Assembly: GCF_001677475.2 (NCBI RefSeq)
Contig: NZ_CP015229.1
DNA: 64,000 bases
Direction: 5' to 3' (one strand)
DNA from: Escherichia coli
GTDB taxonomy: Bacteria > Pseudomonadota > Gammaproteobacteria > Enterobacterales > Enterobacteriaceae
A program made the translations under genes and the position numbers. This document shows positions 19,199-36,800 of this stretch, piece by piece (the stretch's first letter is position 1; each line of letters starts with the position of its first letter). A model generated the notes under the pieces. The model was given only the letters and a program-made list of their open reading frames with translations. It was not told the origin of the DNA and ran no database searches.

Positions 19199-20310
19199 GA
19201 ACGTCATTAGTCACCCGTGAAGAGATGATCGAGGCAATTGAACAGCACACTGCTTGTATCAGTACCAGGGATATACCAGGCGTTATAGCCAACTACTTCA
19301 TGATCACCAAACAACTTTACCGGAGAAAGGACAAGAACGCGGTTCACCGCATCCTGCTGTCTGATATCCGCGAATACCTGCTCGAACAGGGGCATCTGAA
19401 TTACGCAACCGTCGCAGCCGAAACACGCAAGGAGGCACACAGAATGAAAGCAACTAACGTTAAATCAGAAAAAGTTCATGCACCTTCAGTTCAGGAGTCA
19501 GAGCTGGTGGTTGTTCAGAATCAGTCTGATGAAATTCCCGTTCTGGAATGGCTGGGAGTGCGTGTAGTGACAACCAAGATCCTTGCTAAGGGGTATGGGA
19601 CCGATGCGGATAACATCAAGAAGAACTTTTCCCGTAATGCTGAACGTTTTTGTGAAGGCAAGCATTTCTATAAAGTTATTGGAGATGATTTGAACAATTT
19701 GCGGGTGACTTTAAGTAACTCACAAAATCCCATCTCTCCTAAAGCCCGCTCACTCATCCTCTGGACGGAACGAGGAGCTGCCCGTCACGCAAAAATGCTC
19801 GAAACAGATCAGGCATGGGCATTCTTTGAAAAACTGGAAGACAGCTACTTCCGACAAAAAGAACAGCAACCGATCGCAATCCCCCAGACGCTTCCAGAAG
19901 CTCTGCGCCTGGCTGCCGAGCTGGCTGAACAAAAGCAACTTCTGGAACAGAAAACCCACCAGCTAAATCAGCAGCTGGTGGCCGCAGCCCCTAAAGTCGA
20001 TTTTGCCGACCGGGTATCAGTGGCTAAGGGGATCCTGATTGGGAATTTTGCAAAGGTTGTTGGACTTAAGCAAAATGCGCTGTTTGCCTGGTTACGGGAG
20101 AACGGCATCCTGATTGCGTCCGGCGGACGTAAAAATGTACCGTTTCAGCAGTACATAAACGCCGGATATTTCACAGTGAGAGAAGTGGTGCTGGATGATG
20201 AAGATGGCTATCAGATACGGCTGACGCCTCAATTAACGGGGAAAGGCCAACAGTGGTTGACGCGTAAACTGCTCGATGCTGGCTTGTTAAAACCGGTGGC
20301 GGCTGAATAA
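19195..20310 (+). CDS. ant: antirepressor (Bro-N/ORF6N-like N-terminus, KilAC/ANT C-terminal domain)
   Basis: 371 aa from ATG 19195 (track ORF starts at 19159); C-terminal KNALFAWLRENGIL...QQYINAGYF is a typical ANT-domain signature. Confidence 0.75.
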   Translation: MRTSLVTREEMIEAIEQHTACISTRDIPGVIANYFMITKQLYRRKDKNAVHRILLSDIREYLLEQGHLNYATVAAETRKEAHRMKATNVKSEKVHAPSVQESELVVVQNQSDEIPVLEWLGVRVVTTKILAKGYGTDADNIKKNFSRNAERFCEGKHFYKVIGDDLNNLRVTLSNSQNPISPKARSLILWTERGAARHAKMLETDQAWAFFEKLEDSYFRQKEQQPIAIPQTLPEALRLAAELAEQKQLLEQKTHQLNQQLVAAAPKVDFADRVSVAKGILIGNFAKVVGLKQNALFAWLRENGILIASGGRKNVPFQQYINAGYFTVREVVLDDEDGYQIRLTPQLTGKGQQWLTRKLLDAGLLKPVAAE

Positions 20311-20342
20311 TGGAAGAATGCCCGGTTGATGCCGGGCATAAT

Positions 20343-21194
20343 TTATTGCGCGCTTTCGGGGTTGTCGTTTACTGGCTGCCCCTTCTTAGTTTTACGGCTG
20401 CGCGTAACTGATGCGGCTGACTTAACCTTTTTCTCTTCGCGAGTGATGGCAATTTGTTTTTTTACATTTTCAATATCTGCCAGGCGATATATTTTTGCTT
20501 GCGGCCAGCGGTCGCAGATGATCGGTTCTATGGAGTCATAAAGGCTAAATTTTGCTTTTTCGAATTCACCGTTGATGATAATTCCATCACGGAGAGTTTC
20601 ATCGCAGATAAACACGCCACACAGTGGCACATGGTAACTAACTGATTTACCATCATTGTAGTTAGGGCTACTGGAAATGTAGTGGACGCGCAGCATTGTT
20701 TCGCTAAAGCCGTGTACGCGCATACGGAATTTTTCATCCTCTGGGTACTGCTTCATTAGCTCTTTTGTTGCTTCCAGGTTCTCTATGTATTTCGCACTGT
20801 GCTCATTGATCCCCGCGCTTTTTTGGATGCGAATGTCCTTATCAATCAGATGAATAATGCGGCCAGCGGTCATGTTGACGCTGTTCACAGCTTCTGTCTG
20901 ATAAGTCGTAACCTTACGTACACCGCGAAGGATGTTAGGCACAGGATATAAAATAGTCTTTGGGATATTGAGGTCTGGGTACTGTTCCAGTTCCCGCGCC
21001 ATTAAAGTCCATTTATCAATTTCAGCCTGAATGCTGTCTGTTTCTTTGAACGGTAGAACGACAACCGGGCGTACAGGACGACCGTCGCTGGCGGCATCAA
21101 CGTGTTGGGCGCGTGCAACAGCTTTTTTTAGAAAGAGATCCCTGAAGCTGACGAACTCCTGGTACAGTTGTTCGCCGTAGACATAATTTATCAT
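20343..21194 (-). CDS. c1: C1 repressor of lysogeny
   Basis: 283 aa MINYVYGEQLYQEFVSFRDLFLKK...; length and sequence match P1 C1 as recalled. Confidence 0.95.
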   Translation of the reverse strand: MINYVYGEQLYQEFVSFRDLFLKKAVARAQHVDAASDGRPVRPVVVLPFKETDSIQAEIDKWTLMARELEQYPDLNIPKTILYPVPNILRGVRKVTTYQTEAVNSVNMTAGRIIHLIDKDIRIQKSAGINEHSAKYIENLEATKELMKQYPEDEKFRMRVHGFSETMLRVHYISSSPNYNDGKSVSYHVPLCGVFICDETLRDGIIINGEFEKAKFSLYDSIEPIICDRWPQAKIYRLADIENVKKQIAITREEKKVKSAASVTRSRKTKKGQPVNDNPESAQ

Positions 21195-21288
21195 TGATCC
21201 TCCTCCAGAATTGACATGGTCAATAACGCCCGGCTGAGAAAACCGGTCATTACTGACCTATATTATAGAGGGATCAAACAAAAATAAT

Positions 21289-21305
21289 AGATTTATTAGT
21301 GCATT
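21289..21305 (-). promoter_or_regulatory. candidate C1 operator between coi and c1 (weak, 14/17)
   Basis: reverse complement AATGCACTAATAAATCT. Confidence 0.3.
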
Positions 21306-21514
21306 TATTGTGAGTCTAACTGGTTAGTTGCCATGAGATATTCGATTGTGTCAGTGAGGTCATCCAGGTCGTCTTGGGTGATGCGGTACTCCTGATTGGA
21401 TATCTTTGAGTAGTGTTCAGCAATGGCGCGAGCAGCGTCGGTTTCGGCGGGGTCTACAGATAAAGCGTTAGAGCAATGTCTAACATCGTCGATGGTTGGT
21501 GGAATGAAAGCCAT
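21305..21514 (-). CDS. coi: Coi (C1 inactivator)
   Basis: 69 aa, directly upstream of c1 on the same strand as in P1 immC. Confidence 0.85.
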   Translation of the reverse strand: MAFIPPTIDDVRHCSNALSVDPAETDAARAIAEHYSKISNQEYRITQDDLDDLTDTIEYLMATNQLDSQ

Positions 21515-21752
21515 AATTATGCCTCACTGTATTGACAACACAGAGCCTGAAGCTCTGACCTACTGTTTCACCCATGTTCCATGCTGGGGTTATCTATCAA
21601 CATTGCGCTGTGTGTAAGATGAGCAATGCATAGCTGTAATGCCGTTGTATAAGGTTTCCCTGTTTGCTCATTTCCTTCTGAGCCGCTCTACAACGCTGAA
21701 GACACATTAAATAGTGAATCCAAAGTCGTATTACGAAACGGTGGCAAAACTA

Positions 21753-21769
21753 TAATTTATTAGAGCAAT
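21753..21769 (-). promoter_or_regulatory. C1-repressor operator (Op99-type)
   Basis: reverse complement ATTGCTCTAATAAATTA, 16/17, upstream of coi-c1. Confidence 0.75.
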
Positions 21770-21835
21770 TGTCAAACAACTATGAAAAACAATCCAGTTT
21801 TTGGCTGGTGGAGTGGGATTTATCTCTCAAAATAT

Positions 21836-21852
21836 ATTGCTCTAATAATTCT
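21836..21852 (+). promoter_or_regulatory. C1-repressor operator
   Basis: ATTGCTCTAATAATTCT, 15/17, divergent from the 21753-21769 site. Confidence 0.7.
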
Positions 21853-21895
21853 TGTTTTTTATGCGCAGCTGGACGTAAACTCCTCTTCAGACCTA

Positions 21896-21929
21896 ATAAC
21901 TTCGTATAGCATACATTATACGAAGTTAT
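21896..21929. other. loxP recombination site
   Basis: exact ATAACTTCGTATA-GCATACAT-TATACGAAGTTAT (13-bp inverted repeats around an 8-bp spacer). Confidence 0.97.
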
Positions 21930-21948
21930 CTTAAGGGTTATTGAACAT

Positions 21949-22021
21949 GATCAATTTACCTGTAAATCCATACAGTTCAATACCTTATCAGGTCAAATAG
22001 TGATCACTTGATCATTTGATC
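21949..22021. promoter_or_regulatory. GATC (Dam site) cluster between loxP and the cre-proximal genes
   Basis: four GATC within about 70 bp, three of them in TGATCACTTGATCATTTGATCA; P1 cre promoters are known to be Dam-sensitive. Confidence 0.4.
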
Positions 22022-22118
22022 AAGGTTGCGCTACGTAAAATCTGCGAAATGTTGGCAGTGTTAGTGCTCCAGATTTCGCGTAGCGCACTTAGCACCACCA
22101 ATCAATCAGAGGTGAAAA

Positions 22119-22340
22119 ATGGGATATTCAGCTGCTAAAGTGTCCACTCATCTTGAGCTTGAGAAAAACCGTGGTTACTGGCGGGCAAAAGGGTTTGAGC
22201 GTGATAGTTACCAACTGTCATTATCTCGCGGTGAAGAGAAAATAGAACGCACGCGCGGTCGCTGGCGTTTCTATGACGAGAACCATAAACAGGTAAAGGC
22301 AGATCCAATCCTGTACACTCTGCTGAAAACAATAATTTAA
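22119..22340 (+). CDS. small hypothetical protein (73 aa) between loxP and cre
   Basis: GAGGTG ribosome-binding site before the ATG; preceded by a long stem-loop (about 22026-22085). Confidence 0.5.
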   Translation: MGYSAAKVSTHLELEKNRGYWRAKGFERDSYQLSLSRGEEKIERTRGRWRFYDENHKQVKADPILYTLLKTII

Positions 22341-22359
22341 CTTGATCATGAGGTGATGC

Positions 22360-22755
22360 ATGTTTAATAGCCTGACGGATGCCAAGGTAAACGCCTTACT
22401 TAAGGACGCAAAACAAAAAGCTGCTAACCCTGGAACGAGTGAAAATGAACGTGCTATGGCCGTTGCAATTTGGGAGTTAGCAGAAGAAGTAAAGCGAAAC
22501 CGCATGCAGTACACTCGGGTTTACCAGCAATTTGATGGTGCAAGCTGGAAAGATATCGAAGAGGCTGAATATTCAGCATGCAAAGAAGAAAAAAAGACTG
22601 TTCGGATTTTGCATGAAGCAGCAACTCCAATCACTGTAGAAATCCCCGATCACAGATATTTCGAGAACGATGATCTACCTGGGGATGTGATTCGAATTAT
22701 TGATGAGATACTTCATGAACAAGGCTTAACTGTTAAAATTACGCATAATAAATGA
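22360..22755 (+). CDS. hypothetical protein (131 aa), translationally coupled to cre
   Basis: GAGGTG before the ATG; stop overlaps the cre ATG (ATGA). Confidence 0.55.
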   Translation: MFNSLTDAKVNALLKDAKQKAANPGTSENERAMAVAIWELAEEVKRNRMQYTRVYQQFDGASWKDIEEAEYSACKEEKKTVRILHEAATPITVEIPDHRYFENDDLPGDVIRIIDEILHEQGLTVKITHNK

Positions 22756-23783
22756 CTAAATCGTTAACCGTTCACCAAAATTTGCCTGCATTGCCGGTCG
22801 ATGCAACGAGTGATGAGGTTCGCAAGAACCTGATGGATATGTTCAGGGATCGCCAGGCGTTTTCTGAGCATACCTGGAAAATGCTTCTGTCCGTTTGCCG
22901 GTCATGGGCGGCATGGTGCAAGTTGAATAACCGGAAATGGTTTCCCGCAGAACCTGAAGATGTTCGCGATTATCTTCTATATCTTCAGGCGCGCGGTCTG
23001 GCAGTAAAAACTATCCAGCAACATTTGGGCCAGCTAAACATGCTTCATCGTCGGTCCGGGCTGCCGCGACCAAGTGACAGCAATGCTGTTTCACTGGTTA
23101 TGCGGCGGATCCGAAAAGAAAACGTTGATGCCGGTGAACGTGCAAAACAGGCACTAGCGTTCGAACGCACTGATTTCGACCAGGTTCGTTCACTCATGGA
23201 AAATAGCGATCGCTGCCAGGATATACGTAATCTGGCATTTCTGGGGATTGCTTATAACACCCTGTTACGTATAGCCGAAATTGCCAGGATCAGGGTTAAA
23301 GATATCTCACGTACTGACGGTGGGAGAATGTTAATCCATATTGGCAGAACGAAAACGCTGGTTAGCACCGCAGGTGTAGAGAAGGCACTTAGCCTGGGGG
23401 TAACTAAACTGGTCGAGCGATGGATTTCTGTCTCTGGTGTGGCTGATGATCCGAATAACTACTTGTTTTGCCGGGTCAGAAAAAATGGTGTTGCCTCGCC
23501 ATCACCCACCAGCCAGCTATCAACTCGCGCCCTGGAAGGGATTTTTGAAGCAACTCACCGATTGATTTACGGGGCTAAGGATGACTCTGGCCAGAGGTAC
23601 CTGGCCTGGTCTGGACACAGTGCCCGTGTCGGAGCCGCGCGAGATATGGCCCGTGCCGGAGTTTCAATACCGGAGATCATGCAAGCTGGTGGCTGGACCA
23701 ACGTAAATATTGTCATGAACTATATCCGTAACCTGGATAGTGAAACAGGGGCAATGGTGCGCCTGCTGGAAGATGGCGATTAG
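22752..23783 (+). CDS. cre: Cre tyrosine recombinase
   Basis: 343 aa, near-identical to P1 Cre (...TVHQNLPALPVDATSDEVRKNLMDMFRDRQAFSEHTWKMLLSVCRSWAAWCKLNNRKWFPAEPEDVRDYLLYLQARGLAVKTIQQH...); differs at the N-terminus (MTKSL vs MSNLL) and around ASPSPT. Confidence 0.97.
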   Translation: MTKSLTVHQNLPALPVDATSDEVRKNLMDMFRDRQAFSEHTWKMLLSVCRSWAAWCKLNNRKWFPAEPEDVRDYLLYLQARGLAVKTIQQHLGQLNMLHRRSGLPRPSDSNAVSLVMRRIRKENVDAGERAKQALAFERTDFDQVRSLMENSDRCQDIRNLAFLGIAYNTLLRIAEIARIRVKDISRTDGGRMLIHIGRTKTLVSTAGVEKALSLGVTKLVERWISVSGVADDPNNYLFCRVRKNGVASPSPTSQLSTRALEGIFEATHRLIYGAKDDSGQRYLAWSGHSARVGAARDMARAGVSIPEIMQAGGWTNVNIVMNYIRNLDSETGAMVRLLEDGD

Positions 23784-23800
23784 CCATTAATGCGTAAATG

Positions 23801-23817
23801 ATTGCTCTAATTCTTTG
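23801..23817 (+). promoter_or_regulatory. C1-repressor operator
   Basis: ATTGCTCTAATTCTTTG, 13/17 with intact core. Confidence 0.55.
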
Positions 23818-23833
23818 ATATTTATGGTGACAT

Positions 23834-24145
23834 ATGAGAAAGGATTTCAACATCGACGGAAAATATGTAGTGCTGTCTGTAAGCACTAATATTCAGTCGC
23901 CAGCCGTCATTGTCACTGTAAAGCTGAGCGATAGAATGCCTGATATTGACTCAATATCCGTTGCGTTTCCTGTCAAAAGTATGCGTAGTGCTGAACATTT
24001 CGTGATGAATGCCACCGAGGAAGAAGCACGGCGCGGTTTTGCTAAAGTGATGTCTGAGTTTGGCGAACTCTTGGGTAAGGTTAACAATGTCCTTTCAATC
24101 AGTTCAGCAAGGTCCAAAGCGTTAACAGCTTCCATGATGAAATAA
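23834..24145 (+). CDS. hypothetical protein (at the P1 cra position)
   Basis: 103-aa track ORF directly downstream of cre. Confidence 0.6.
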   Translation: MRKDFNIDGKYVVLSVSTNIQSPAVIVTVKLSDRMPDIDSISVAFPVKSMRSAEHFVMNATEEEARRGFAKVMSEFGELLGKVNNVLSISSARSKALTASMMK

Positions 24146-24277
24146 AAAAAAGCTTGGCAAGGAGCCAGGCTGCACAAAAGAGCGGGTTTGTATTCCGCAT
24201 CCAATCAATCAAGAAGGAGTATAGCACACTGGTACTGAAGTGAAAAAATGTGATTCGCGATAAACAAAATATCTATC

Positions 24278-24307
24278 ATTGCTCTAATTGATTGCTATAA
24301 TTGAGCC
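24278..24307 (+). promoter_or_regulatory. C1-repressor operator upstream of ref, with an overlapping degenerate second copy
   Basis: ATTGCTCTAATTGATTG (14/17) overlapping ATTGCTATAATTGAGCC; ref is C1-controlled in P1. Confidence 0.6.
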
Positions 24308-24360
24308 GCGGTTTTTGTCAACTACGAAGACGAGCCATTACTTAACTCCTTGACATCATA

Positions 24361-24386
24361 GGCGGCCATTAGGCCGCCTTTTTTTT
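24361..24386 (+). terminator. rho-independent terminator-like hairpin
   Basis: GGCGGCC-ATTA-GGCCGCC followed by a T8 run, 6 nt before the ref ATG; TTGACA at about 24350. Confidence 0.65.
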
Positions 24387-24392
24387 GACCAT

Positions 24393-24953
24393 ATGAAAAC
24401 AATCGAACAAAAAATTGAACAGTGCCGCAAGTGGCAGAAGGCAGCCAGAGAACGAGCGATCGCTCGGCAACGGGAGAAGTTGGCTGATCCGGTCTGGCGA
24501 GAATCTCAATATCAGAAAATGCGAGATACTATCGACCGCCGTATCGCTAAACAGAAAGAGCGCCCACCAGCCAGCAAAACGCGGAAAAGCGCGGTAAAAA
24601 TAAAATCTCGTGGCTTGAAGGGGAGAACACCAACGGCGGAGGAACGGCGCATCGCCAATGCTCTTGGCGCTCTCCCCTGCATTGCCTGCTATATGCATGG
24701 AGTAATATCTAATGAGGTGTCTCTGCACCATATCGCCGGTCGTACCGCGCCGGGTTGTCATAAAAAGCAATTGCCACTTTGTAGATGGCACCACCAGCAT
24801 GCAGCTCCGGCTGAAGTAAGAGAAAAATACCCCTGGCTGGTCCCTGTTCATGCCGATGGTGTGGTTGGAGGCAAGAAAGAATTCACCTTGCTGAACAAGT
24901 CAGAGATGGAGTTGCTGGCTGACGCCTATGAAATGGCAAACATCATGCACTAA
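24393..24953 (+). CDS. ref: Ref (recombination enhancement function), HNH endonuclease
   Basis: 186 aa; basic N-terminus and Cys/His HNH core (CIACY...HH...CRWHH). Confidence 0.9.
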   Translation: MKTIEQKIEQCRKWQKAARERAIARQREKLADPVWRESQYQKMRDTIDRRIAKQKERPPASKTRKSAVKIKSRGLKGRTPTAEERRIANALGALPCIACYMHGVISNEVSLHHIAGRTAPGCHKKQLPLCRWHHQHAAPAEVREKYPWLVPVHADGVVGGKKEFTLLNKSEMELLADAYEMANIMH

Positions 24954-25141
24954 TAAATATATTATTTTTAATCTTAAATGATTGACAACTGACAAGTGAC
25001 TTGAGTCAGAATCATCACACGCCCGGTACGGATGGATCCCTTTTCAAATATTCCATGGACGGCACAGTCTGAGTACCGGGCGCTACCTTCAGTTGTATTG
25101 CTAAGCCGCCGCTGGTGGCTTTTCTTTTTGTAGGGGGAGCT

Positions 25142-25783
25142 ATGGATAAGAAAATATGCGTTGTTTCGATGAACGTCGGCAAACCGGCGTCAATGACTGC
25201 TGCATGGATCAACAACGAGCTGATAATGGCTGAGCGGACCAGCTACCCTGAACGCCGCCGCGACATGGAACTCCAGCTGCTGCGCGAATTGCGAGAAAAA
25301 GAGGAAAAGGGTTTTATCGTGCTGGTGGAAGAGGAAAACAGCTTTATTACTGGTCGAGTTGGCCAGCGTGTAAGGTTGCGCGATCCCTTCATGAACGGCA
25401 GGCCGGTACTGATTGAAGCAATGCAGATTTACAAGGAGCTGGAACGCCAGAAAGCGATCAAGTTACCACGCAAGGAGTCCGGCAAGTACATTCTCCATCA
25501 AAGCATCTTCGATTCCGAACACGACAAAAAAGGCGATGAATTTTTCAACATCAACTGGAGCGAAATAACCACAGAGCACGTTCTGACGCTACTATGTTGC
25601 TTTGCAACGGAATACAACAACGTGGTGAGCGCGCACTACATTCAGGCAATGGCTGGTAGGATTAATACGCAGCGTGAGCCCTCGCTGATAGAGCCATTCA
25701 TCAATATTATTAATGCTACTCAACGAATGGGAGAAACACGTGTGCCGCAAGGCTTACTCACAGGTAAATATGATTACCTTTAA
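25142..25783 (+). CDS. hypothetical protein (at the P1 mat position)
   Basis: track ORF 25115-25783 trimmed to ATG 25142, preceded by GGGGGAG. Confidence 0.6.
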   Translation: MDKKICVVSMNVGKPASMTAAWINNELIMAERTSYPERRRDMELQLLRELREKEEKGFIVLVEEENSFITGRVGQRVRLRDPFMNGRPVLIEAMQIYKELERQKAIKLPRKESGKYILHQSIFDSEHDKKGDEFFNINWSEITTEHVLTLLCCFATEYNNVVSAHYIQAMAGRINTQREPSLIEPFINIINATQRMGETRVPQGLLTGKYDYL

Positions 25784-26020
25784 TTTCAAACTTATTACAC
25801 CAAGCAGCTAATTACAAATTACTACTTAAGGTAACCAAAAATTATTATTTGCAAAACACATAAAAAACAAAAACAAAACAATAAAAAACACAAATTAACA
25901 TCAACACCAAATGAAGACATTTTACTAACCAAGCCTCAGCATCTATTACCAGTAGATATAAAGGTGATAAATGGAGGAATTAATAGCACGCATATTAAGC
26001 TGGTTGTTTCATAATCAATA

Positions 26021-26138
26021 ATTGAATAATAATTCAATGCGTCTCCATGATTTTTATGTAACGATGCACATTAATCGCATATATTTGTTGAATGATTTTC
26101 ATTTGAAATTTATTTAAAGTGAATAATTGATTTATTCA
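26021..26138. promoter_or_regulatory. two AT-rich palindromes upstream of the autotransporter gene (candidate operator sites)
   Basis: ATTGAATAATAATTCAAT (26021-26038) and TGAATAATTGATTTATTCA (26120-26138) share TGAATAA/TTATTCA arms. Confidence 0.35.
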
Positions 26139-26267
26139 ACCTCCTTATTTATTATTTTTCCGATTTTGTGCAGCGAAATGCATGAATATTTGCGAGAACA
26201 TAATCACACAGTAAACTAAAACATCTGTTATTATAAATCCGGATAATGTATAAACTCGAGGTTATCT

Positions 26268-29200
26268 ATGTCACTTTCTGTTTATAATAATAAAAAAAAT
26301 AGCTCTTCAGGGGGGAACTCTCCTCGCTTGACCCTACTGGCAGCTATAATCGGCGCATTATTTTCAAATGCTTACGCTTCAACAACTGCTATTAAAATTG
26401 ATAATGATGTTCAAGTTAATAAAGATAACCTCGATATTAATACGGGCAGTAATACAGGAAGTAATGGATATGCGATCTCTGTCACAAATTCAGGTGAACT
26501 AACTACCGAAGGTACAGTGACGTTATCTACAGAAGGTGATAAGGCAAACGGAGTTAATATATCCAGTGGGTCTAAAATTAACTCTCAAGGTGGGATTACA
26601 ATAACCACAAAAGGCAAAAACGCCTCTGGCATTTCACTTGATAATAATTCTTCAATGACTATCGCTAACGGTATGTCAATTACAACAAGTGGGATAAACG
26701 CTACAGGGATTAATGTTGACAAATCTTCACTAACTGTTGAACAAGGTGATATTAACACATCTGGTGTAAATGCTAGTGGTGTTTCTATTTTAAATGGAGG
26801 CCAAGCCAGTTTAAATAAAGTTAACATTACCACATCTGGAGATAATGCCAGAGGTATTGTTAGCTCTGGCATAAATAGCAAAATAGTAATTAGCGACTCA
26901 ACCATTACCACTCTGGGGGATAAAAAACCATCACAAGCATGGGGAGCTCGTGGCATATCTGCCGAAAACAACGGTTATGTTTCACTAACAAATACGCAGA
27001 TTAAAACTGATGGAACAGGGGCTTGGGGAGTATCTGCATCGTCAGCTGGCTCAGCTGAATTAGCTGATGTTCATATTTCCACTTCAGGCCAAAATGGCTA
27101 TGGTTTACGTGCAGATGGCAATAACTCTAGTATATCTGTATCTAAAGGACTCCAGGTAACCACTTCTGGCAAACAAGCTCATGCCGTAACTGCCTCTAAT
27201 AATGGGAATATAAATCTTGGAGTAAATGCATCTCTTGAAACATCAGGGACGCAGGCTAATACCATCCATATCACCGGTGGTAATGGTGGTATAATAACGG
27301 GTGATAGTATCTCAATAAAAACAAATGGCACATCAGCCAAAGGTATATATGTTACGGCTTTAAATCCCTCAGACTCAGCACCTGATTCACGCGTAGAGCT
27401 GACGGGAACATCAACAATCGCCACATTAGGTGATCAGTCAATAGGTGTGTGGGGGCATGGTAAAGTAGCTGATATTAGCTTCGAGCAAATAGCTATTAAT
27501 ACAGCCGGTACTGACTCATACGGTATAAATGCACAAAATGAAGCCACTGTTAATGCCCATACAGCCCAGATTATTACTAAGGGGCTAAACTCATATGGAG
27601 CAACAGCAAATTCAGCTGCAAAAATTACACTTGGTTCTGGTTCATCGATTACAACAAGCGGTGATTATGCTCATGGAATATGGGTCAGTGATGACAATAC
27701 AGTTATTAGTGGCAATAATGCATCCATTCATGTATCAGGAAAAGAGGCTGACTCTGTAGTCGCTGCCAATAATGCAAAAGTTGAGCTTACCCAAGAGAAT
27801 GGGGTGATGATTAGCGAAACTAGATATAACTTTAATGCTAATGGTGGTGCTATTTCCGCCACGTTAGATGGCAGCCAAATAAAGAATAACGGCACATTCA
27901 TCTTCTCAACCAGTAATGATGCCGGTGTGGGAGGGAACGTTGATGTTACAGTCAAGAATACTTCCTTTAATGGCGATATTCGCGCTGATAGTAACAGTAT
28001 TGCCAATCTTTCATTAGAAAATTCCAACTGGACTGGAACCGCGTATAATGGTGGCATTGTTAATTTAGCTAAAAACAGCATCTGGAATATGGTTAGCGAT
28101 TCGGATGTTGCTCATCTTAATAATAATGGCTCTATATATTTGGGCAGCGATGCAAAAAACACTTTAACAATTAATGGTGATTATACTGGCGAAAATGGCT
28201 ATATCTACTTTTCAGGCGTTCTTGGTGACGACACATCTCCAATCGATAAGTTGGTTGTAAAAGGAAATACAGAGGGTAAAACCTTTGTTTCCGTAAACAA
28301 CGTTGGTGGTATTGGGGCACAAACACTCAATGGCATCAACATTATCCAGGTTGATGGTCAATCTAACGGTGACTTTGTACAAGTTGGCCGAATTGCGGCT
28401 GGTGCTTATGATTACACTCTTGGGCGGGGGCAAGGCGATAAAAATGGCAACTGGTACCTAACTAGTGGCAAACAACCTGAGGATCCAACTCCGAACCCGG
28501 ACCCGGAGCCAAATCCGACCCCAACACCAGGTGACAATGATCTTCGCCCAGAAGCTGGTAGCTATACGGCAAACATTGCTGCTGCAAATACTATGTTCGT
28601 GACTCGCCTACACGAACGTCAGGGGCAAATGCAGTATACCGATGTGATTACCGGTGAATTGAAAACTACAAGCATGTGGATGCGTCATGAGGGTGGACAC
28701 AATCGCTGGCGCGACGGAAGCAACCAGTTAAAAACACAAAGCAACCGTTATGTTATGCAACTGGGCGGCGATATAGCACAGTGGGGTTGGAATAAAACGG
28801 ATCGCTGGCATCTTGGCTTAATGGCCGGATACGGTAATGACCACAATAATACAGAATCTGTGCGCACAGGATATCGTTCAAAAGGTAGTGTGAATGGTTA
28901 CAGCACTGGGCTGTATGCCACCTGGTATGCCAATGATGAAACACATAACGGGGCTTACCTAGACTCTTGGGCACAGTACAGCTGGTTTGATAACTATGTT
29001 AAAGGTGATGGATTGCAGAGTGAATCCTGGAAATCAAAAGGACTTACTGCATCACTGGAAACTGGTTATACCTGGAAGGCTGGTGAGTTTACGGGCAGCC
29101 AAGGTGGTTTGAATGAGTGGTATGTCCAGCCTCAGGCTCAGGTCATCTGGATGGGTGTTAAAGCGGACGAACATCGCGAAAGCAACGGTACCCGTGTTGA

Positions 29201-29522
29201 AAGCACCGGAGATGGTAATGTCCGTACCCGTCTGGGCGTGAAAACATGGATTAAAAGCCACAGTCGTATAGATGAAGGCAAATCCCGGGAATTCAGCCCA
29301 TTTGTGGAAGTGAACTGGCTGCATAACACCCGTGATTTTGGTACTCGTATGAATGGTGTGACGGTACATCAGGACGGTGCCCGTAATATCGGAGAAATAA
29401 AAACCGGTGTTGAGGGGCAGATAAATTCCAGACTGAACCTGTGGGGGAATGTAGGTGTTCAAGTCGGTGACAAAGGGTATAACGACACATCTGCAATGTT
29501 GGGTGTGAAGTATACCTTCTGA
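26268..29522 (+). CDS. AIDA-I/Ag43-type autotransporter (adhesin-like passenger, C-terminal beta-barrel)
   Basis: 1084 aa; N-terminal signal peptide, Gly/Ser/Thr-rich repetitive passenger, Pro-rich linker PTPNPDPEPNPTPTP, C-terminal barrel ending ...LGVKYTF; AT-rich codon usage unlike flanking P1-type genes. Confidence 0.85.
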   Translation: MSLSVYNNKKNSSSGGNSPRLTLLAAIIGALFSNAYASTTAIKIDNDVQVNKDNLDINTGSNTGSNGYAISVTNSGELTTEGTVTLSTEGDKANGVNISSGSKINSQGGITITTKGKNASGISLDNNSSMTIANGMSITTSGINATGINVDKSSLTVEQGDINTSGVNASGVSILNGGQASLNKVNITTSGDNARGIVSSGINSKIVISDSTITTLGDKKPSQAWGARGISAENNGYVSLTNTQIKTDGTGAWGVSASSAGSAELADVHISTSGQNGYGLRADGNNSSISVSKGLQVTTSGKQAHAVTASNNGNINLGVNASLETSGTQANTIHITGGNGGIITGDSISIKTNGTSAKGIYVTALNPSDSAPDSRVELTGTSTIATLGDQSIGVWGHGKVADISFEQIAINTAGTDSYGINAQNEATVNAHTAQIITKGLNSYGATANSAAKITLGSGSSITTSGDYAHGIWVSDDNTVISGNNASIHVSGKEADSVVAANNAKVELTQENGVMISETRYNFNANGGAISATLDGSQIKNNGTFIFSTSNDAGVGGNVDVTVKNTSFNGDIRADSNSIANLSLENSNWTGTAYNGGIVNLAKNSIWNMVSDSDVAHLNNNGSIYLGSDAKNTLTINGDYTGENGYIYFSGVLGDDTSPIDKLVVKGNTEGKTFVSVNNVGGIGAQTLNGINIIQVDGQSNGDFVQVGRIAAGAYDYTLGRGQGDKNGNWYLTSGKQPEDPTPNPDPEPNPTPTPGDNDLRPEAGSYTANIAAANTMFVTRLHERQGQMQYTDVITGELKTTSMWMRHEGGHNRWRDGSNQLKTQSNRYVMQLGGDIAQWGWNKTDRWHLGLMAGYGNDHNNTESVRTGYRSKGSVNGYSTGLYATWYANDETHNGAYLDSWAQYSWFDNYVKGDGLQSESWKSKGLTASLETGYTWKAGEFTGSQGGLNEWYVQPQAQVIWMGVKADEHRESNGTRVESTGDGNVRTRLGVKTWIKSHSRIDEGKSREFSPFVEVNWLHNTRDFGTRMNGVTVHQDGARNIGEIKTGVEGQINSRLNLWGNVGVQVGDKGYNDTSAMLGVKYTF

Positions 29523-29544
29523 ACTAAATAGCATCTAAGAACAA

Positions 29545-29571
29545 AGAGCAGAACCATGGATGGACTGCTCT
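29545..29571 (+). terminator. possible terminator hairpin after the autotransporter gene
   Basis: AGAGCAG-loop-CTGCTCT stem; T-run weak. Confidence 0.3.
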
Positions 29572-29626
29572 TTACCATGACACCGATATTCCATTATTTC
29601 TATCTTTTGATATATATATTAACAAA

Positions 29627-29971
29627 ATGAATAATAAAAAAGAAACTTGTTATATAAAAGCACATATAGAAAGGCATGATATTACAGTTCATGTGTGGAT
29701 ATCTGCATCATTGACAGAAGCTGAATGCAGCGTACTTGAGTTATTATTAAAGGGATATAATATCACTCAGATATCAAAGTCCCGATTTCGCAGCATTAAA
29801 ACAGTTTCTTTTCAGAAATACAAAATATACAAAAAGTTAGGAATTCATAATGACATCACATTCTGGGTAGATATTTCATTATCCCCTTATGTGAGAATAA
29901 AGTTCTCCGGTAAAGATAGTACGTTCAAGAAATGTATATTACCATGTCCTAATTACATCTCGATGCAGTGA
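29627..29971 (+). CDS. LuxR/GerE-type helix-turn-helix regulator
   Basis: 114 aa; LTEAECSVLELLLKGYNITQISKSRFRSIKTV matches the LuxR-type HTH signature; AT-rich. Confidence 0.65.
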   Translation: MNNKKETCYIKAHIERHDITVHVWISASLTEAECSVLELLLKGYNITQISKSRFRSIKTVSFQKYKIYKKLGIHNDITFWVDISLSPYVRIKFSGKDSTFKKCILPCPNYISMQ

Positions 29972-30111
29972 TAACTGCACTCAAACAATATCTACCTATA
30001 CAATATAAATACTCCATGACCAAGAAACGCATGAAGATATGGAACTTCACAAGTTTGCTCTTCATGGAGTATGGCTATCAGAGGGGCCAGTAACCGCAAC
30101 CTTTAAGTATA

Positions 30112-30360
30112 TCAATCTATATTCAGGAGCAATGCATTATCTATGATGATTTGCTCCCATTCTTCGAATGCCCGGTCGCGGACGCCCTGGGGAACGCTGT
30201 TAGTTTTGAAATCGACGACCGTCCGCCATTTTCCGTCCGGACGGTACATCCGCAGAGCTTTACTTCCCCCTTCCCTGCGCACCTCAACGTTATGCTTATC
30301 AGCAAACTCTTGTAATGCTCGTAGCGTCCCATGCTTTACTGTGTAGTATCGCTTTTTCAA
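30112..30360 (-). CDS. small basic protein (at the P1 lxc/bof position)
   Basis: 82-aa track ORF at the end of the darB-containing minus-strand gene string; assignment by size and position only. Confidence 0.45.
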   Translation of the reverse strand: MKKRYYTVKHGTLRALQEFADKHNVEVRREGGSKALRMYRPDGKWRTVVDFKTNSVPQGVRDRAFEEWEQIIIDNALLLNID

Positions 30361-30797
30361 GTTTTCTCTCCAGCCTGTGCTAAGGCTTCAACTTCCAAAT
30401 CGTAAGACTCAAACTCATAGTCCTGGTCGTCAACCTCTTCAGGCACTGGCAGTAAATGCCAGGCTGAGTATATCTGACCATTATCAAAACGCTCCTGGCT
30501 GTAGAGCGTCGCGGCTATGAGCGTCAGCGCCGGGCGGTCATAACGGTAAATTTTGCGAACGTCACGGTCAACGAGACGACCGAAATTACCATAACCGCGC
30601 TCCAGTAATAATTTTTTAATTTCCGGCCAGTATGGGCCGTAGCTGCGGTACAGGCGGGGATTTTTCAGTAATCGCCCGCGTAGCCCTGACAGGAAGAAAT
30701 CAACGTATTCGTCTTCTGTCTTTCCTAACAACGCTGTACGGAGTACCGCCTCAAGATATGTTTTATTCGGTTTTATTGTATCAGATAGTGTGGCCAT
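30357..30797 (-). CDS. hypothetical protein (at the P1 ulx position)
   Basis: 146-aa track ORF; 4-nt overlap with the downstream gene. Confidence 0.5.
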   Translation of the reverse strand: MATLSDTIKPNKTYLEAVLRTALLGKTEDEYVDFFLSGLRGRLLKNPRLYRSYGPYWPEIKKLLLERGYGNFGRLVDRDVRKIYRYDRPALTLIAATLYSQERFDNGQIYSAWHLLPVPEEVDDQDYEFESYDLEVEALAQAGEKT

Positions 30798-30830
30798 ATT
30801 ATGCGACGCCCGGCGAACCGGGCGCTCCTG

Positions 30831-33800
30831 TTATGCGTATTGTTGGATGACGGCCAGAACGTCCGCCACGTTGTGTTTTGTCTCGATAATCCACCAGTTA
30901 CCCGGGAAATCGCTGTTCTTCGCCTTCGCTGGCAGCCAGCGAGCGCCGAATTTCGCCTTGATTGCGTCTTTCGCACGGAAAAGAATGCCTTTCATGCCGG
31001 ACGCCTCCTGAAGCCCAAATACCTCACCAGCGGCGAATTTTGGTGCGTACATCATCTTCAAGTCGGCGGTGGATACGCGATAATTCAGACCAAGAGACTG
31101 AGCTATGCTGGTGGCATCACCCTGTATTGATGATAACTCTTCTTGTTTCTCGTTTCTGGCGGCAATTTCTTCCTCCGTGATGTTGCCTAGGGCCAGGTTT
31201 ATCCGATCAGCGTCGGCCTGTTTCTCTTCATCAGTGCGCCCGGCAAGTGCCGTGTTAATTCTCTGCAATATCTCCACATGATTCTTGCGCATGCTGAGCA
31301 ATTCCGGCGTAACCTCGTTAAGGTCCACCAGCCCAAGAATGGCAAGGTCAGAAAACATTGATACCAGGTTGTAGGTCATGCGATAGCTGAGTTGGCCATA
31401 GGCTGATGGCAACTGCACCGAATCCATTTTATAGGCATCCATAAATTTAGAGCCTTCGTTTACGACATCCGCAATTGCAGGTGTGATTTTCCCTGTGGTG
31501 GCGGCCTCCCTGATTGCTGTTACCCACGATTGAGTCAGCGCGGCGACTGCATGATTCAGATTGGCTTTCCGTTCTGCTGCAATGCGCGCGCTTGCTGCGT
31601 CCATTGCCTGCTTGATCTCATCTTTATTGCTGTAAATGTCAATGGTGCCAAACTGTGTTGTGGTGATCTCATAATCTGACGACCGGAACTCATGGGTACC
31701 GAAAATAGCATTGGTGACCTCAAGTTCAGAATCCCCGTTACGAGTAGCCCCCTGGCTTGTTTTCTCCGGCATTCTGGCGATCGCATCCGCTATTTTCTCC
31801 TGAATTGCTTCAGGAGATAGCGTATCTCCGTATGACGCGATTACATCGCCATAATTGGAGCCAAACAGTTCAGTCAGGAATACTTCTGCCAAACGGACCT
31901 GGCGGTTATTCCCTTCCGACATCATACCAAGCACCCATTTTGCAATTGACGACTTCAGCGCGCCGTCACGGCGATCCGGGTAAACCGCATGCTTCAGTGG
32001 GTTCGTATAGGTACCGACAAAATCAATGCTATAGCCTGACTCTGTAGTCTGAACGCCGTATGAGTCAGTGATTTTGATCATGCCGCGCTGCTGGAAACGG
32101 TAGAAATCGTCACAGGAAATGATGTCGTTAATCCCGGCGATGGAGACGCCACCACTGATTTTCTGCATAACAGCATCTTCATCGGGAGTTACATCCACCT
32201 GTTTATCCAGCGTCTTCACATCCCAGTTACCCGATTTGGTGCCTTTGAAGGTAAAGATAATCTCCACGTCTGCGCGCTGGCTGTCGAAGTCCAGCGACTT
32301 AATGCGAACGATATCACCGGCACAATCGTAGTATTGGCCTACACGCCATGAGCGATCGCCGATAACAAGGAACTCATTCGCATGGTTAACCAGATCAGGA
32401 TCAACATCCAGAATGCCTTTATTTATTGCATCCTCCACCAGCGGGCGCAGGCGTTTGATATCCGTCGCGGCCTTCTGAGTACGGTTCAATAATTTCTCAT
32501 AGCGGGAAATGGCTTGAGAGATATTAGCCTTGCGCTGAATGGCGCTTTTCAACGACGCGCGATACTGTGCTAACAACATACGGTCTGTGTGATGGACACT
32601 CCCCCAGCGGGCCTTCCAGTCTGCGTTATCAGCTGCTTTGGCCATTACCGCCTGTTTGAATTTAGCTACCTCGTCGGTGCTCTTTTCAAATTCCGCTTTG
32701 CTTCGCTCTAATTCAGCGGTAAGTACCTCCACATCCTCGCCAGCTGCGTGCTGCGCCTTGATGTAGTTCTGAAGGTCGATAGTAGCCTGTTCTTTCTGGC
32801 GAGCGCGTTGCGCGGCTTTCGCCTTATCCATTTGAACCTGCATCATTGCCAGACGTTCGCCATCATCCTTAGCGGTATACATCTGCATTTCGATCATATC
32901 GTTGGCGTCGGCGTTCTCCATTTCTGACTTATCTGAACGGAGGATATCGGAGATCCAGCCTGCTTTACGCTTCAGCGTCTTAAGTCGGTATTCATCGAAA
33001 GAACCCTTGCCGCAGTAGTAATGAACGCGAACGCTTGCACGGTTGGAGCCAACTCGGGCACCGCGACCGTTACGCTGTGCGATACTGGCTGGTGTCCATG
33101 GCAACGTCAGATGATGGATGTCAGTCGTTCCTCGATGCAGGTTGATACCCACCTCTGCCTTTTTGTTGCAGATGATGATCGGAGTCCAGCCCTCCTGGAA
33201 GTCGGCTGCAATCTTTTCCAGACCGCCCAACGACATTTCATTTTGCTGCGCGATATAGGCGTCATACAGAGCCATTTGCTCGTTGTATTTCGCTATCTGT
33301 GCATCTGTTGGTTCATCCGGTAGCTCTTTCGGCGGTTTAACAGCTTTCAGTTTCTGACCGGTTTTGCCTGCCTCGGCAACCGTCTGAGCATTCAGGATCC
33401 CCACCTTTGAAGGTTCAAGGTTAAGAGCATTGCAGATAATGCGTTTGAGCTTCTGGTGTTGCGTTTTTTCATCGGTGAAGATGATTTGCTTACCTTCCGG
33501 GAAAAACTCCTTCAGCGTGGCGATCAGCTTCGCGTATTTGGGCGTAACGGGGTGAGTTACGGTCTGTTCGTCAATGCCAAACTTGGCCAGGCGCTTATTC
33601 ACTTCCTGCTCAAACGCTTCCGGAACCTGCAACTGAATAAACTCGCCCTTATCTATCAGGGAGTATTGCGATTGCTGCGTGATTGAATCATCACTGTCGT
33701 CGTCTTCGCTGGTGGCTTGTTTAGGCAAACTGTCCGCCAGCTGCTGCACCGCATCGGCGTACTCCGGCAGGAAACGATAGGTGATCCGGCGATAGTACAG

Positions 33801-36800
33801 GTCCATGTCAGTACATACGCGGTCCATATCCCTGATTATTGAGAAGATCGGACGGGCTTTCTCGTGCTCAATCACGCCGTCTTCATTAACCGAGGTCGTT
33901 ACGCCATTGTTGGCTTTTGCTGCCGCTTCCGCCTGCTGACGCAATTCTTCATACGCCGCCAGTTGTTCTTCAGTAAGTGGTGCATCCTGCTGGTGTTCGT
34001 CCAGCTCCGGGATCTCCACGGTATCCTTAACGTCTTCCGCCGTTTTAAGCGTTACCCAGCGATGGAATATACCGCGCAGCGCATCAAGGTTTTCAAAGCC
34101 CACCAGCGCCATTTTTTCTTCAACTTCACCGCTGATTTTCTGTACCGTTTCCAGCCTGGTCTTGCCGAAGAATTTAACGAAGTCATCAGGACCGTAGATC
34201 CCCATCTTCTGCCAGTATTCCTTCGGCAGAACATGAGAAAGCATGTTGTATGCATCGATCGGGGTGTTAACGACTGGCGTTGCAGTCAGGAGAACCGGTC
34301 CGCGCCCGCCATTCTTTTTCATCAGGTACGCGTTTTTAATTGCCATATCCCGCGCCGATTGCGCCACCGCACTGGTGGGCAGATAGGCCAGTTGTGACGC
34401 TTCGCGACCATTTTTATAGCTATTGCGGTAGTTGTGGCCTTCGTCGGCGATCACGCTGTCGAAGCCCATATCCTCAAAGTACGGATACTTCTCTGCTTTT
34501 TCGGTACCGGTATCTGAATACTCCGACAATACCCGGCGACGCGCCGCCTCTTTGCGATGGGAATCGGAATCCATTGCGCTGGCCACACGTCCGGCAGCAA
34601 CGAAGTCATAAAGCATGTCTTGTGCATGCTCATCTACGGTGTCATCACGTAGCGGAATGCGGGCGTATTGTTCTTTGGTAAACACGACTGCACGGTAATT
34701 TGAGTGCGGGATCGCATTCATCCGCGCCGTGATAGTGGCTTCATCTGCCAGCTTAAGAGCATCGCGCATAACTGGAGTGCCATCAGCACCAAGAACAGGT
34801 TTACCGTTCTCATCGAGCACCGGCACCTGGCGAATCTGATCGCCATCCATCAGCACATCAAGACCGACGAACAGGTAGTTACTGAATGCCTCTTCACTCA
34901 GGAATTCTTTTGCTTCGTAATACCAGTTTTCCAGCACTGATTTAGGCACTACATACGCAGTACGGGTGGAGCGACCGTTCTCATAGTTGAACGCCTCAAG
35001 TGCCAGCGCGGTCGTGGTTTTACCCAGCCCGGTGCCGAAGCCCAGGATGCCGCGCCCATCTTCGGACAGTCGGCGCACCTCGCTATTCTGGTAATCAAAT
35101 GGCTGACGCTTACCGCTTAATCCCTTCAACCCAAGCGGATCGCCAGAGTGTTCATACGGGATATTGCTATTGAACACATCGTTGTATTTGGCAACCAGCT
35201 CATCGTAGCGATCGTGCGTCTTGATCCACTTATTGAACTGGTCCTCAAGCAGTGCCATCTGCTCGCGGTAGCCGTTCGCCGTCGCGCTATCTTTGCCACC
35301 GATACGCGCACCATTGAGATACTTTTCCAGCTGTGCCGGGAACCCGGTCGCGTTTTCACCTGATTTACGGTCCCACTCGTAGCGGATCTCGCCTGTTTCT
35401 TTATCCTTGCGCTGGACGACACCGTATCGGTGCCCGACGAACAGACCATCACCACCGTGATAGGTGTCAGAAACCATTTCGTCGCCTTCCAGCTGCACTG
35501 ACTGCACATAGCGCAGATCCGGATAGCCGTTTTTCTGCAAAAACTCCAGAATGACGGAGCGGTCGAACCAACGGCTATTGAGCTTAAAGCGGATATTCTC
35601 TGCTGGCGTCTTGATGCGCTTCTCTTCGATCGCTGCCAGCTGATTAAGGACGTTGTTCTTTACTGGACCGTCGGGGAGTGTGGCAAGGAATTCCTGTTTT
35701 GGAGCCACTATCTCGTTAATGTCGCCGCTGGTGGCGCGGGCGAACGGAACAATCCCGCCATACGGTGAAACCGCAATACCAGGGGTGCTGGCCAATAAAT
35801 TAAGCAACTCTTCATCACTGGCTGGCAGTTCGCCGGTAAACGCAAGGCGGAAATCATCGAGCTGGATTGGATCGCGGGTAAGATCGCTATAGAGATAACG
35901 CAGGGTGTCCTGATAGCTGGTGGAGTCATAACTGGCGCTGGAATCATGCGTAACCAGCTTTCCTGTCAGCTCGTCAGAAATAGTGCCATCCAGCTTAATT
36001 GCCCCACGGAAAGCAAACCAGGCGCGCGCACCGCTTCCCGATAATTTAGCTATCGGACCGCGACCGGGGTTACCAAAACGGTCAATCTCTGCCTGCAAAC
36101 GGGATACCAGAGAAAGGCGCTTCTGTTCGATTTGTTCAGCACTATGCCCGGCGGCCTTCATATCCTGATATTCAATTAACATCCGGCCAATCATCGCCCC
36201 GCGATACAAGCGTTCACGGTATTTTTCAGGCTGGCTGTTAATCCAGTCCACCAGCTGCACCATATCGTCGCTGATTGATGTGGTGTACTTATCGCGGACA
36301 TTTGCCATCTGGGTAAATGTCATACCGAGACGGCCTTCTGTTGTAGTCAGGTTACGCTGAAGAGCCTCCCAGCTATCCGCGCCATAACTGGCAGCATCAA
36401 TCTTAAGCTCCTTACCAGCATCAGCTTCAATCCAGCGACCACCAGCATATTTTTGCCATACGCCATTAATCAGGCGCATTTCCCCTTCATCAACAACATC
36501 TGCGGTCGGTGACGGTTCAGCCATATCGAGCAAAGACCAGTCGATACGACTTTCGAAACGATGAATCAGCTTCGCTTTAAGAGCCTGGTTATCAATCTGC
36601 CCGTCGGCACGAACCTCAATACGCCCCTGGAAGCCCTTTTCCTGGGTACCATGAACAAACCGGCGGCCATCCTTTTCAAACCACTTGCCAGAAATAAACG
36701 TTGGCCAAAGCACATTTGCCGATTCAAGAGTGCTTTCATCCACCAGGGGGATTTTCTCAGCCATCTCTGCCGGATGTTTGCGCATCAGCACCACATCAAC

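Follow-up and report, generated by a model that had tools for sequence, protein, structure and literature searches.

The AT-rich DNA upstream of an autotransporter adhesin gene on a P1-like phage-plasmid of Escherichia coli appears to hold one credible conserved operator and one chance palindrome. The putative operator, palindrome 1, is an inverted repeat whose arms are preserved in all five versions of the upstream region that we compared, and its best candidate binder is the host arginine repressor ArgR. The other inverted repeat, palindrome 2, lies over the –35 hexamer of the predicted promoter.

The adhesin gene and its upstream region

The window, that is, the whole stretch of 64,000 nucleotides that was analysed, is a P1-like phage-plasmid. 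The features discussed below are located as follows, in window coordinates:

25784–30111, plus strand: cargo segment (adhesin gene and HTH gene), between P1-type mat and lxc
25980–25998, no strand assigned: third dyad, TTAATA-GCACGCA-TATTAA, a perfect 6-7-6 repeat missed by the original prediction
26021–26038, no strand assigned: palindrome 1, ATTGAAT-AATA-ATTCAAT, 230–247 bp upstream of the ATG at 26268
26120–26138, no strand assigned: palindrome 2, TGAATAA-TTGAT-TTATTCA, 130–148 bp upstream of the ATG at 26268
26127–26155, plus strand: predicted sigma-70 promoter, TTGATT-17-TATTAT (from prediction and conservation)
26268–29522, plus strand: AIDA-I/Ag43-type autotransporter gene, 1084 aa, with the Shine-Dalgarno sequence GAGG at 26258–26261
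29627–29971, plus strand: gene for a 114-aa stand-alone GerE/LuxR-type HTH protein (Pfam GerE, residues 28–76)

The cargo segment is flanked by Cre (343 aa), Ref and Mat on one side, and by Lxc, Ulx and the 2255-aa DarB, encoded on the other strand, on the opposite side. The mat–lxc slot carries the EcoPI res/mod genes in phage P1, and in hundreds of P1-like plasmids it is filled by SIR2, PIN, RelA/SpoT, GNAT, DUF4935 or other genes. P1 and its relatives carry such varied genes at this position that it counts as a known variable slot, and the adhesin and HTH genes are its cargo here. The P1-like context was noted over positions 22752–37598 of the window. A megablast search of the region against complete E. 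coli genomes returned no match. An adhesin is a rare cargo for this mostly defence-type slot, with one other record among 791 plasmid hits. The autotransporter contains the AC_1 and Autotransporter beta-domain families of Pfam and matches AIDA-I/MisL/ECSE_1600-type models of NCBIfam. Just past its stop codon, a hairpin (AGAGCAG-N13-CTGCTCT) followed by TTT occupies 29541–29569, and the HTH reading frame beyond it has no obvious Shine-Dalgarno sequence.

The original prediction described palindromes 1 and 2 as paired candidate regulator sites with shared TGAATAA/TTATTCA arms. On re-reading the sequence, the two palindromes, their coordinates, their separation of about 100 bp (99.5 bp from centre to centre) and their distance from the autotransporter start are all right. 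The shared arms hold in part: TGAATAAT is common to both palindromes, but the right arm of palindrome 1 is TAATTCA and not TTATTCA. Furthermore, the gap between the TGAAT and ATTCA half-sites is 4 bp in palindrome 1 versus 9 bp in palindrome 2, and the two therefore do not represent one site in duplicate. The spacer upstream of the autotransporter gene is 484 bp long with a GC content of 27.5%, versus about 49% for the window. Dinucleotide-preserving shuffles of this spacer contain on average 0.88 perfect dyads with 7-bp arms (spacer 0–10), and 22% of them contain at least two; within the window alone, the pair is therefore correctly described and unremarkable. The TGAAT/ATTCA pentamers show a mild enrichment in the spacer (6 observed versus 2.9 expected, P = 0.07), and the core of palindrome 1, TGAATNNNNATTCA, occurs once in the 64-kb window.

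Five distinct upstream variants were compared, three from plasmids (the window, CP056895.1 and L053, a contig of a third P1-like plasmid that ends inside the autotransporter gene) and two from E. coli chromosomes (chrA and chrB). The version in the window recurs, identical, in several sequencing-run contigs. Adhesin identity to the window copy is 90% for CP056895.1, 84% for L053 and 58–68% for chrA and chrB, whose adhesin loci are situated at the end of a CP4-like element beside yghD/pheV, with a CSS-EAL gene and no HTH gene downstream. The upstream sequences are 70–86% identical within the plasmid group, versus 48–56% between plasmid and chromosomal variants. A genome scan based on the autotransporter gave only proteins that share the C-terminal beta-domain, and the dyad was found in none of those loci. 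Two annotations met along the way deserve mention. The CP056895 autotransporter is annotated from an internal Met (position 2829 of locus L031), and the conserved start ATGTCACTTTCTG lies in frame 54 bp further upstream, at position 2775, preceded by GAGG. In addition, a contig labelled as a Collinsella MAG (L003) encodes an Escherichia-type autotransporter C-terminus (67% identity), probably as a result of binning contamination.

Palindrome 1 is present in all five variants, as ATTGAAT-AATA-ATTCAAT in the window (–247 from the ATG), ATTGAAT-ACAA-ATTCAAT in CP056895 (–235), ATTGAAT-ATCA-ATTCAAC in L053 (–245), AATGAAT-AGAA-ATTCATT in chrA (–249) and AGCGAAT-AACT-ATTCACA in chrB (–231). The resulting consensus is (T/C)GAAT-N4-ATTCA, in which the arms do not vary, any base may occupy the two central positions and the immediate flanks have diverged. 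The pair just outside TGAAT changes from T:A to A:T to G:C among the variants and stays complementary throughout, and it is the sole covarying pair. The dyad was assessed by shuffling alignment columns, a procedure that preserves composition and per-column conservation. In four variants, 26 of 28 pairs are complementary, versus a null mean of 19.6 and a maximum of 24 (0 of 1000 shuffles). In all five, which represent only two to three independent lineages and whose MAFFT alignment may have anchored on this very dyad, 32 of 35 pairs are complementary, versus a null mean of 25.0 and a maximum of 31 (0 of 500 shuffles). Palindrome 1 is also the top-scoring dyad of the upstream alignment. On this comparative evidence, palindrome 1 is likely to be a functional binding site. 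It would serve as a cis-regulatory operator within the autotransporter gene's own 450-bp AT-rich upstream region, and would move with the adhesin gene, irrespective of whether that gene resides on a P1-like phage-plasmid or within a chromosomal island of E. coli.

Palindrome 2 behaves differently. The dyad is degraded in two of the three plasmid variants (CGAATAA..TTATTTA in CP056895 and TGAATAA..TTATTTA in L053), where the substitutions do not compensate for each other, and it is absent from both chromosomal variants. Over the five variants it scores 25 of 35 complementary pairs, which equals the column-shuffle null mean. Its centre, TTGATT (26127–26132), is the –35 hexamer of the predicted promoter, the only promoter-like site on the plus strand in 25700–26350. 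The TTG of this hexamer is kept in all variants, and the –10 hexamer reads TATTAT, TATCAT, TATTAT, TATAAT and TATTAT across them. Because the dyad is unconserved, scores at the null level and is centred on the –35 element, we interpret palindrome 2 as AT-rich DNA surrounding a promoter element and not as a selected dyad. Transcription would start near 26162 and give a leader of about 105 nt, which would place the centre of palindrome 1 about 133 bp upstream of the start. The proposal that both palindromes are candidate regulator sites is supported for palindrome 1, whose arms are conserved in the homologous islands and whose spacer varies; by the same criterion of conservation, palindrome 2 fails. 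Whatever the binder, the comparison singles out the palindrome 1 dyad, the AATTAATAGC block and the promoter as conserved elements of the region.

ArgR as a candidate binder of palindrome 1

Our comparison with regulator consensus sequences points to ArgR. The E. coli ARG box consensus, which we take to be WNTGAATWWWWATTCANW, is matched by palindrome 1 at 18 of 18 positions, including all 16 informative ones, and the five variants match it at 18, 17, 17, 16 and 16 of 18 positions. The match was found post hoc, and a perfect ARG consensus occurs in 6.5e-4 of shuffled spacers. When the K-12 argI, carAB, argECBH and argR boxes are scanned alike, they give 8–10 of 10 core matches; palindrome 1 is comparable, and its quality equals that of the argI box ATTGAATTTTAATTCATT. 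Neither palindrome showed a conserved match to the consensus strings that we assumed for Lrp, Fur, RcsB, FNR, CRP and IHF. Because palindrome 1 is a perfect ARG box, ArgR would be its most likely binder, an assignment that we make tentatively. ArgR is present in every host, a fact that would account for conservation of the dyad on plasmids and chromosomes alike.

The ARG box positions most conserved in E. coli are G4, A6, T7, A12 and T13 (PMC6640053). The central positions of palindrome 1, by contrast with those of arginine regulon boxes, are not kept A/T among its relatives: they include C or G, and two of the five variants have C at box position 10, a base that is very unusual there in real ARG sites (PMC2409434). 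A 16/18 consensus match near the P1 loxP site did not bind ArgR in vitro (PMC2409434), and agreement with the consensus alone is therefore weak evidence.

The arrangement of the site also bears on the assignment. Palindrome 1 shares with the ARG boxes of the E. coli arginine regulon the 18-bp palindrome, the TGAAT/ATTCA arms and the four-base gap. Arginine regulon operators, however, consist of two boxes 2–3 bp apart placed over the –35 and –10 elements, whereas palindrome 1 is solitary, lies about 133 bp ahead of the predicted start and belongs to an adhesin gene. Palindrome 1 lacks a canonical second ARG box at 2–3 bp; its best neighbour, which is not conserved, has 5 of 10 core matches in the window and chrA and 2–4 of 10 in CP056895. 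Scored as two boxes, the K-12 operators reach 14–19 of 20, versus 14–15 of 20 for the palindrome 1 site. In a ChIP-exo study, all E. coli ArgR sites occupied in vivo had a 39-bp double box (PMC4381063). The ARG boxes of strongly repressed genes overlap the promoter, and unusual positions are known, for example at lrp (PMC6640053); palindrome 1, unlike the boxes of strongly repressed genes, is far upstream of the predicted promoter.

There is precedent both for a solitary box and for ArgR at acquired genes. The single ARG box of ColE1 cer is enough for ArgR binding at about 10 nM, and like palindrome 1 it is a solitary, plasmid-borne 18-bp box (PMC2409434). The cer box assists Xer recombination as an accessory site and is separated by 98 bp from the XerC/XerD core; near palindrome 1, by contrast, no convincing Xer core was seen by eye, and the dyad also accompanies the gene in its chromosomal copies. 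ArgR is a direct activator of acquired virulence loci such as the LEE (EHEC, C. rodentium) and the T6SS of K. pneumoniae, where the arginine sensor is wired to acquired colonisation genes via a promoter-region ARG box (PMC12341379). Those cases are experimentally supported, whereas palindrome 1 is a prediction from sequence.

In the mechanism that we envisage, arginine-loaded ArgR would bind the solitary box at palindrome 1 and bend the DNA, and its binding would modulate, and most likely relieve, silencing of the weak AT-rich promoter, in the way known for ArgR at other acquired loci. Taken together, palindrome 1 as an operator, ArgR as its anti-silencing binder and palindrome 2 as a by-product make up the best explanation overall, one that we hold provisionally and with clearly less than even confidence. 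It is rather improbable that the full scheme applies, in which the adhesin of a temperate phage-plasmid would be tied to the host arginine sensor via a solitary far-upstream ARG box acting as an anti-silencing switch, and the co-transferred PdeL-like HTH protein would in parallel tune motility or c-di-GMP targets. Should ArgR indeed bind palindrome 1, acquired colonisation genes would once more be found linked to a nutrient signal of the host, in this instance arginine, and the phage-plasmid could carry the entire regulated module from strain to strain. The site would then also provide a natural instance of a regulatory ARG box that is single and distal to the promoter.

The PdeL-like protein encoded downstream

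The palindromes had originally been likened to lux boxes, as targets of the LuxR-family regulator encoded just downstream. This framing does not survive inspection of the protein. The 114-aa protein consists of a GerE-type HTH alone and is therefore not a quorum-sensing LuxR. Its closest solved relative is PdeL (PDB 7pk5), which matches residues 7–85 with an E-value of 9.7e-16, and the recognition-helix residues K, T, S, Q and K are invariant across the HTH family and PdeL. By these sequence matches, the protein is best described as a stand-alone homologue of the N-terminal DNA-binding domain of PdeL (YahA). The resemblance to a lux-box system, as used by LuxR and TraR, is confined to an inverted repeat upstream of a promoter and a GerE-type HTH regulator: lux-box regulators have an N-terminal autoinducer domain, which the 114-aa protein lacks. 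The lux box itself is a 20-bp inverted repeat centred near –42.5 of its target promoter. Both palindromes are dissimilar to it: relative to the predicted start, palindrome 1 is centred at about –133, and palindrome 2, the only one near the –40 region, is centred at about –33, is 19 bp long and is unconserved.

The HTH family is a small one, restricted to Escherichia and, at greater distance, Salmonella. Its genes are found 3' of adhesin genes: tibA in ETEC H10407, a second autotransporter gene neighbouring the UpaE locus and, on a P1-like plasmid of E. albertii, a Pef-like fimbrial operon. An EAL gene or fragment often comes next, as though a PdeL-like gene had been cut in two, and the arrangement looks like the outcome of repeated splitting or truncation of a PdeL-type HTH–EAL gene. 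The module of autotransporter, small PdeL-like HTH and EAL gene or fragment recurs in the tib locus of H10407 (L046), where it directly follows tibA, and at two loci of E. coli chromosomes (L040 and L047). The small regulator should be annotated as a DNA-binding domain of the PdeL type, which is found repeatedly 3' of adhesin genes.

The alternative closest to the original prediction is that the 114-aa protein or a paralogue binds palindrome 1, palindrome 2 or both in the manner of PdeL, countering H-NS, recruiting RNA polymerase and forming a feedback loop with the adhesin gene. PdeL recognises two sites upstream of its own promoter, a distal AT-rich palindrome (CIB) and a proximal box (CDB), competes with H-NS and activates that promoter (bioRxiv 10.1101/2021.10.01.462762). 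This precedent, a distal AT-rich palindrome and a proximal box upstream of an H-NS-silenced promoter, resembles the adhesin upstream region in having a regulator of the same HTH family and two AT-rich sites, the distal one palindromic, and the clear homology of the 114-aa protein to the PdeL DNA-binding domain, with its invariant recognition-helix residues, speaks for the same reading. We take CIB to be TTCAATAAG-N6-CTTATTTAA, as inferred from the oligonucleotide table of that study and not from a figure. Its left half, TTCAATAAG, resembles TTGAATAAT of palindrome 1 (7 of 9 positions) and GTGAATAAT of palindrome 2 (6 of 9), but similarity between AT-rich half-sites carries little information. 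A free central spacer, as in palindrome 1, is typical of HTH dimers. In addition, palindrome 2 is found in plasmid variants only, in two of which the HTH gene follows directly (the L053 contig ends within the autotransporter gene), and an HTH paralogue lies 37–40 kb away in six of the eight chrA-type genomes.

Several observations stand against such binding. The half-site gaps differ among palindrome 1, palindrome 2 and CIB, with spacings of 7-4-7, 7-5-7 and 9-6-9, respectively (shorter in the two palindromes than in CIB by at least 3 bp), so a single binding mode cannot fit all three. TGAAT-N4-ATTCA, with at most one mismatch, is absent near the adhesin promoters of five other HTH-family loci (77.7 kb), which comprise tibA, two loci of the second autotransporter, the Pef-like fimbriae and an isolated copy; the K-12 PdeL target regions pdeL, fliF and sslE also have no TGAAT-N4-ATTCA. 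Between the window and CP056895, identity of the HTH protein is only 69%, with differences in the recognition helix, yet palindrome 1 has the same arms in both. Furthermore, the dyad persists at the chromosomal orthologues although no HTH gene is adjacent, and no HTH homologue was detectable in three of nine chromosomal-type genomes (C5, 52F4 and SC418), all of which have the adhesin gene and the dyad. PdeL differs in having an EAL domain and in needing Cra at the proximal site; the 114-aa protein, a putative binder here, is the DNA-binding domain alone. The link between this regulator and the palindromes appears weakly supported, and we consider it unlikely.

Further sequence likenesses were noted around the HTH genes and pdeL. 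A TACCTT-N3-AAGGTA repeat in the K-12 pdeL leader was considered as a PdeL box and dropped, since the published oligonucleotides put CIB and CDB further upstream. Dyads of the form GAATAA-N5-(T/A)(T/A)ATTC, with the spacing of palindrome 2, lie on the start codons of three HTH genes (L031 6161, L040 9006 and L047 7003); they probably reflect the shared MNN... coding sequence, and with lower probability may be autoregulatory sites. The 11-mer TCATTTGAAAT is located at 26099–26109, between the two palindromes, and also just downstream of CIB in the K-12 pdeL control region (L049 1211–1223). TTGAAAT is kept in four of the five upstream variants. By a rough estimate, the sharing of TCATTTGAAAT with the pdeL region is within chance for AT-rich DNA.

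Base composition, hairpins and the third dyad

A less probable explanation dispenses with a sequence-specific regulator altogether: the upstream region would be an AT-rich leader silenced by H-NS, Fis or IHF-type proteins, and both palindromes would be by-products of base composition. H-NS silencing of E. coli autotransporter genes is common, and the spacer is markedly AT-rich DNA upstream of a horizontally acquired gene, as expected of H-NS-type targets. The GC content of 27.5%, the presence of at least two 7-bp dyads in 22% of shuffles, the only mild enrichment of TGAAT/ATTCA (P = 0.07) and the chance-like behaviour of palindrome 2 in the column-shuffle tests all fit this reading. It fails, however, for palindrome 1, which remains a near-perfect dyad across sequences that are about 50% diverged, with a variable spacer and complementary changes in its flanks. 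Nucleoid-protein binding in this AT-rich DNA, which the original prediction had offered as an alternative, is plausible as a background.

It is very unlikely that palindrome 1 acts as a nucleic-acid hairpin, be it an RNA stem-loop in a read-through transcript from mat or an upstream island gene, or a DNA cruciform. The outermost pair stays complementary through T:A, A:T and G:C, a classic signature of pairing, and all four variants that were folded have, as their minimum-free-energy structure, the same stem of 7 bp or 4+1 bp closed by a 4-nt loop. A search for intrinsic terminators found none, including between mat and the adhesin gene, which is compatible with read-through. The stems, however, are weak and AU-rich (–3.9 to –5.8 kcal/mol, z-scores –1.4 to –3.0), only one pair covaries, and an Rfam search of 20000–32000 gave no match. 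Palindrome 1 is also upstream of the only conserved promoter, so that a transcript across the site would be hypothetical.

Other readings were rejected more directly. A leader peptide encoded by a 16-codon reading frame ending at 26020 was set aside because its ATG is absent in CP056895, and a P1 C1 operator and an Xer/cer-type core were rejected on by-eye comparison. An invertible element bounded by TTGAATAA (26022–26029) and TTATTCAA (26132–26139) was likewise dismissed, as the second repeat is missing in the chromosomal variants.

The third dyad, upstream of palindrome 1, contains the conserved block AATTAATAGC at 25983–25992. The dyad is kept in L053 (TTAATAGCATGCATATTAA) and in chrA (TTAATAGCGCACTTATTAA), and its left block, AAT(T/A)AATAGC, is found in all five variants. 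For the right half there are two versions, GCAYATTAA-like and CAAACCA, whose distribution does not follow the grouping into plasmid and chromosomal variants; this pattern suggests mosaic recombination. At one of the chromosomal HTH-family loci, upstream of the second autotransporter of CEA224S (L040 4600–4720), we also observed a cluster of GATC sites, ...GATCAG...AGCGATCGATT...TGATCG...GTCGATCGGG..., an arrangement reminiscent, by analogy, of Dam/OxyR phase-variable control as in Ag43.
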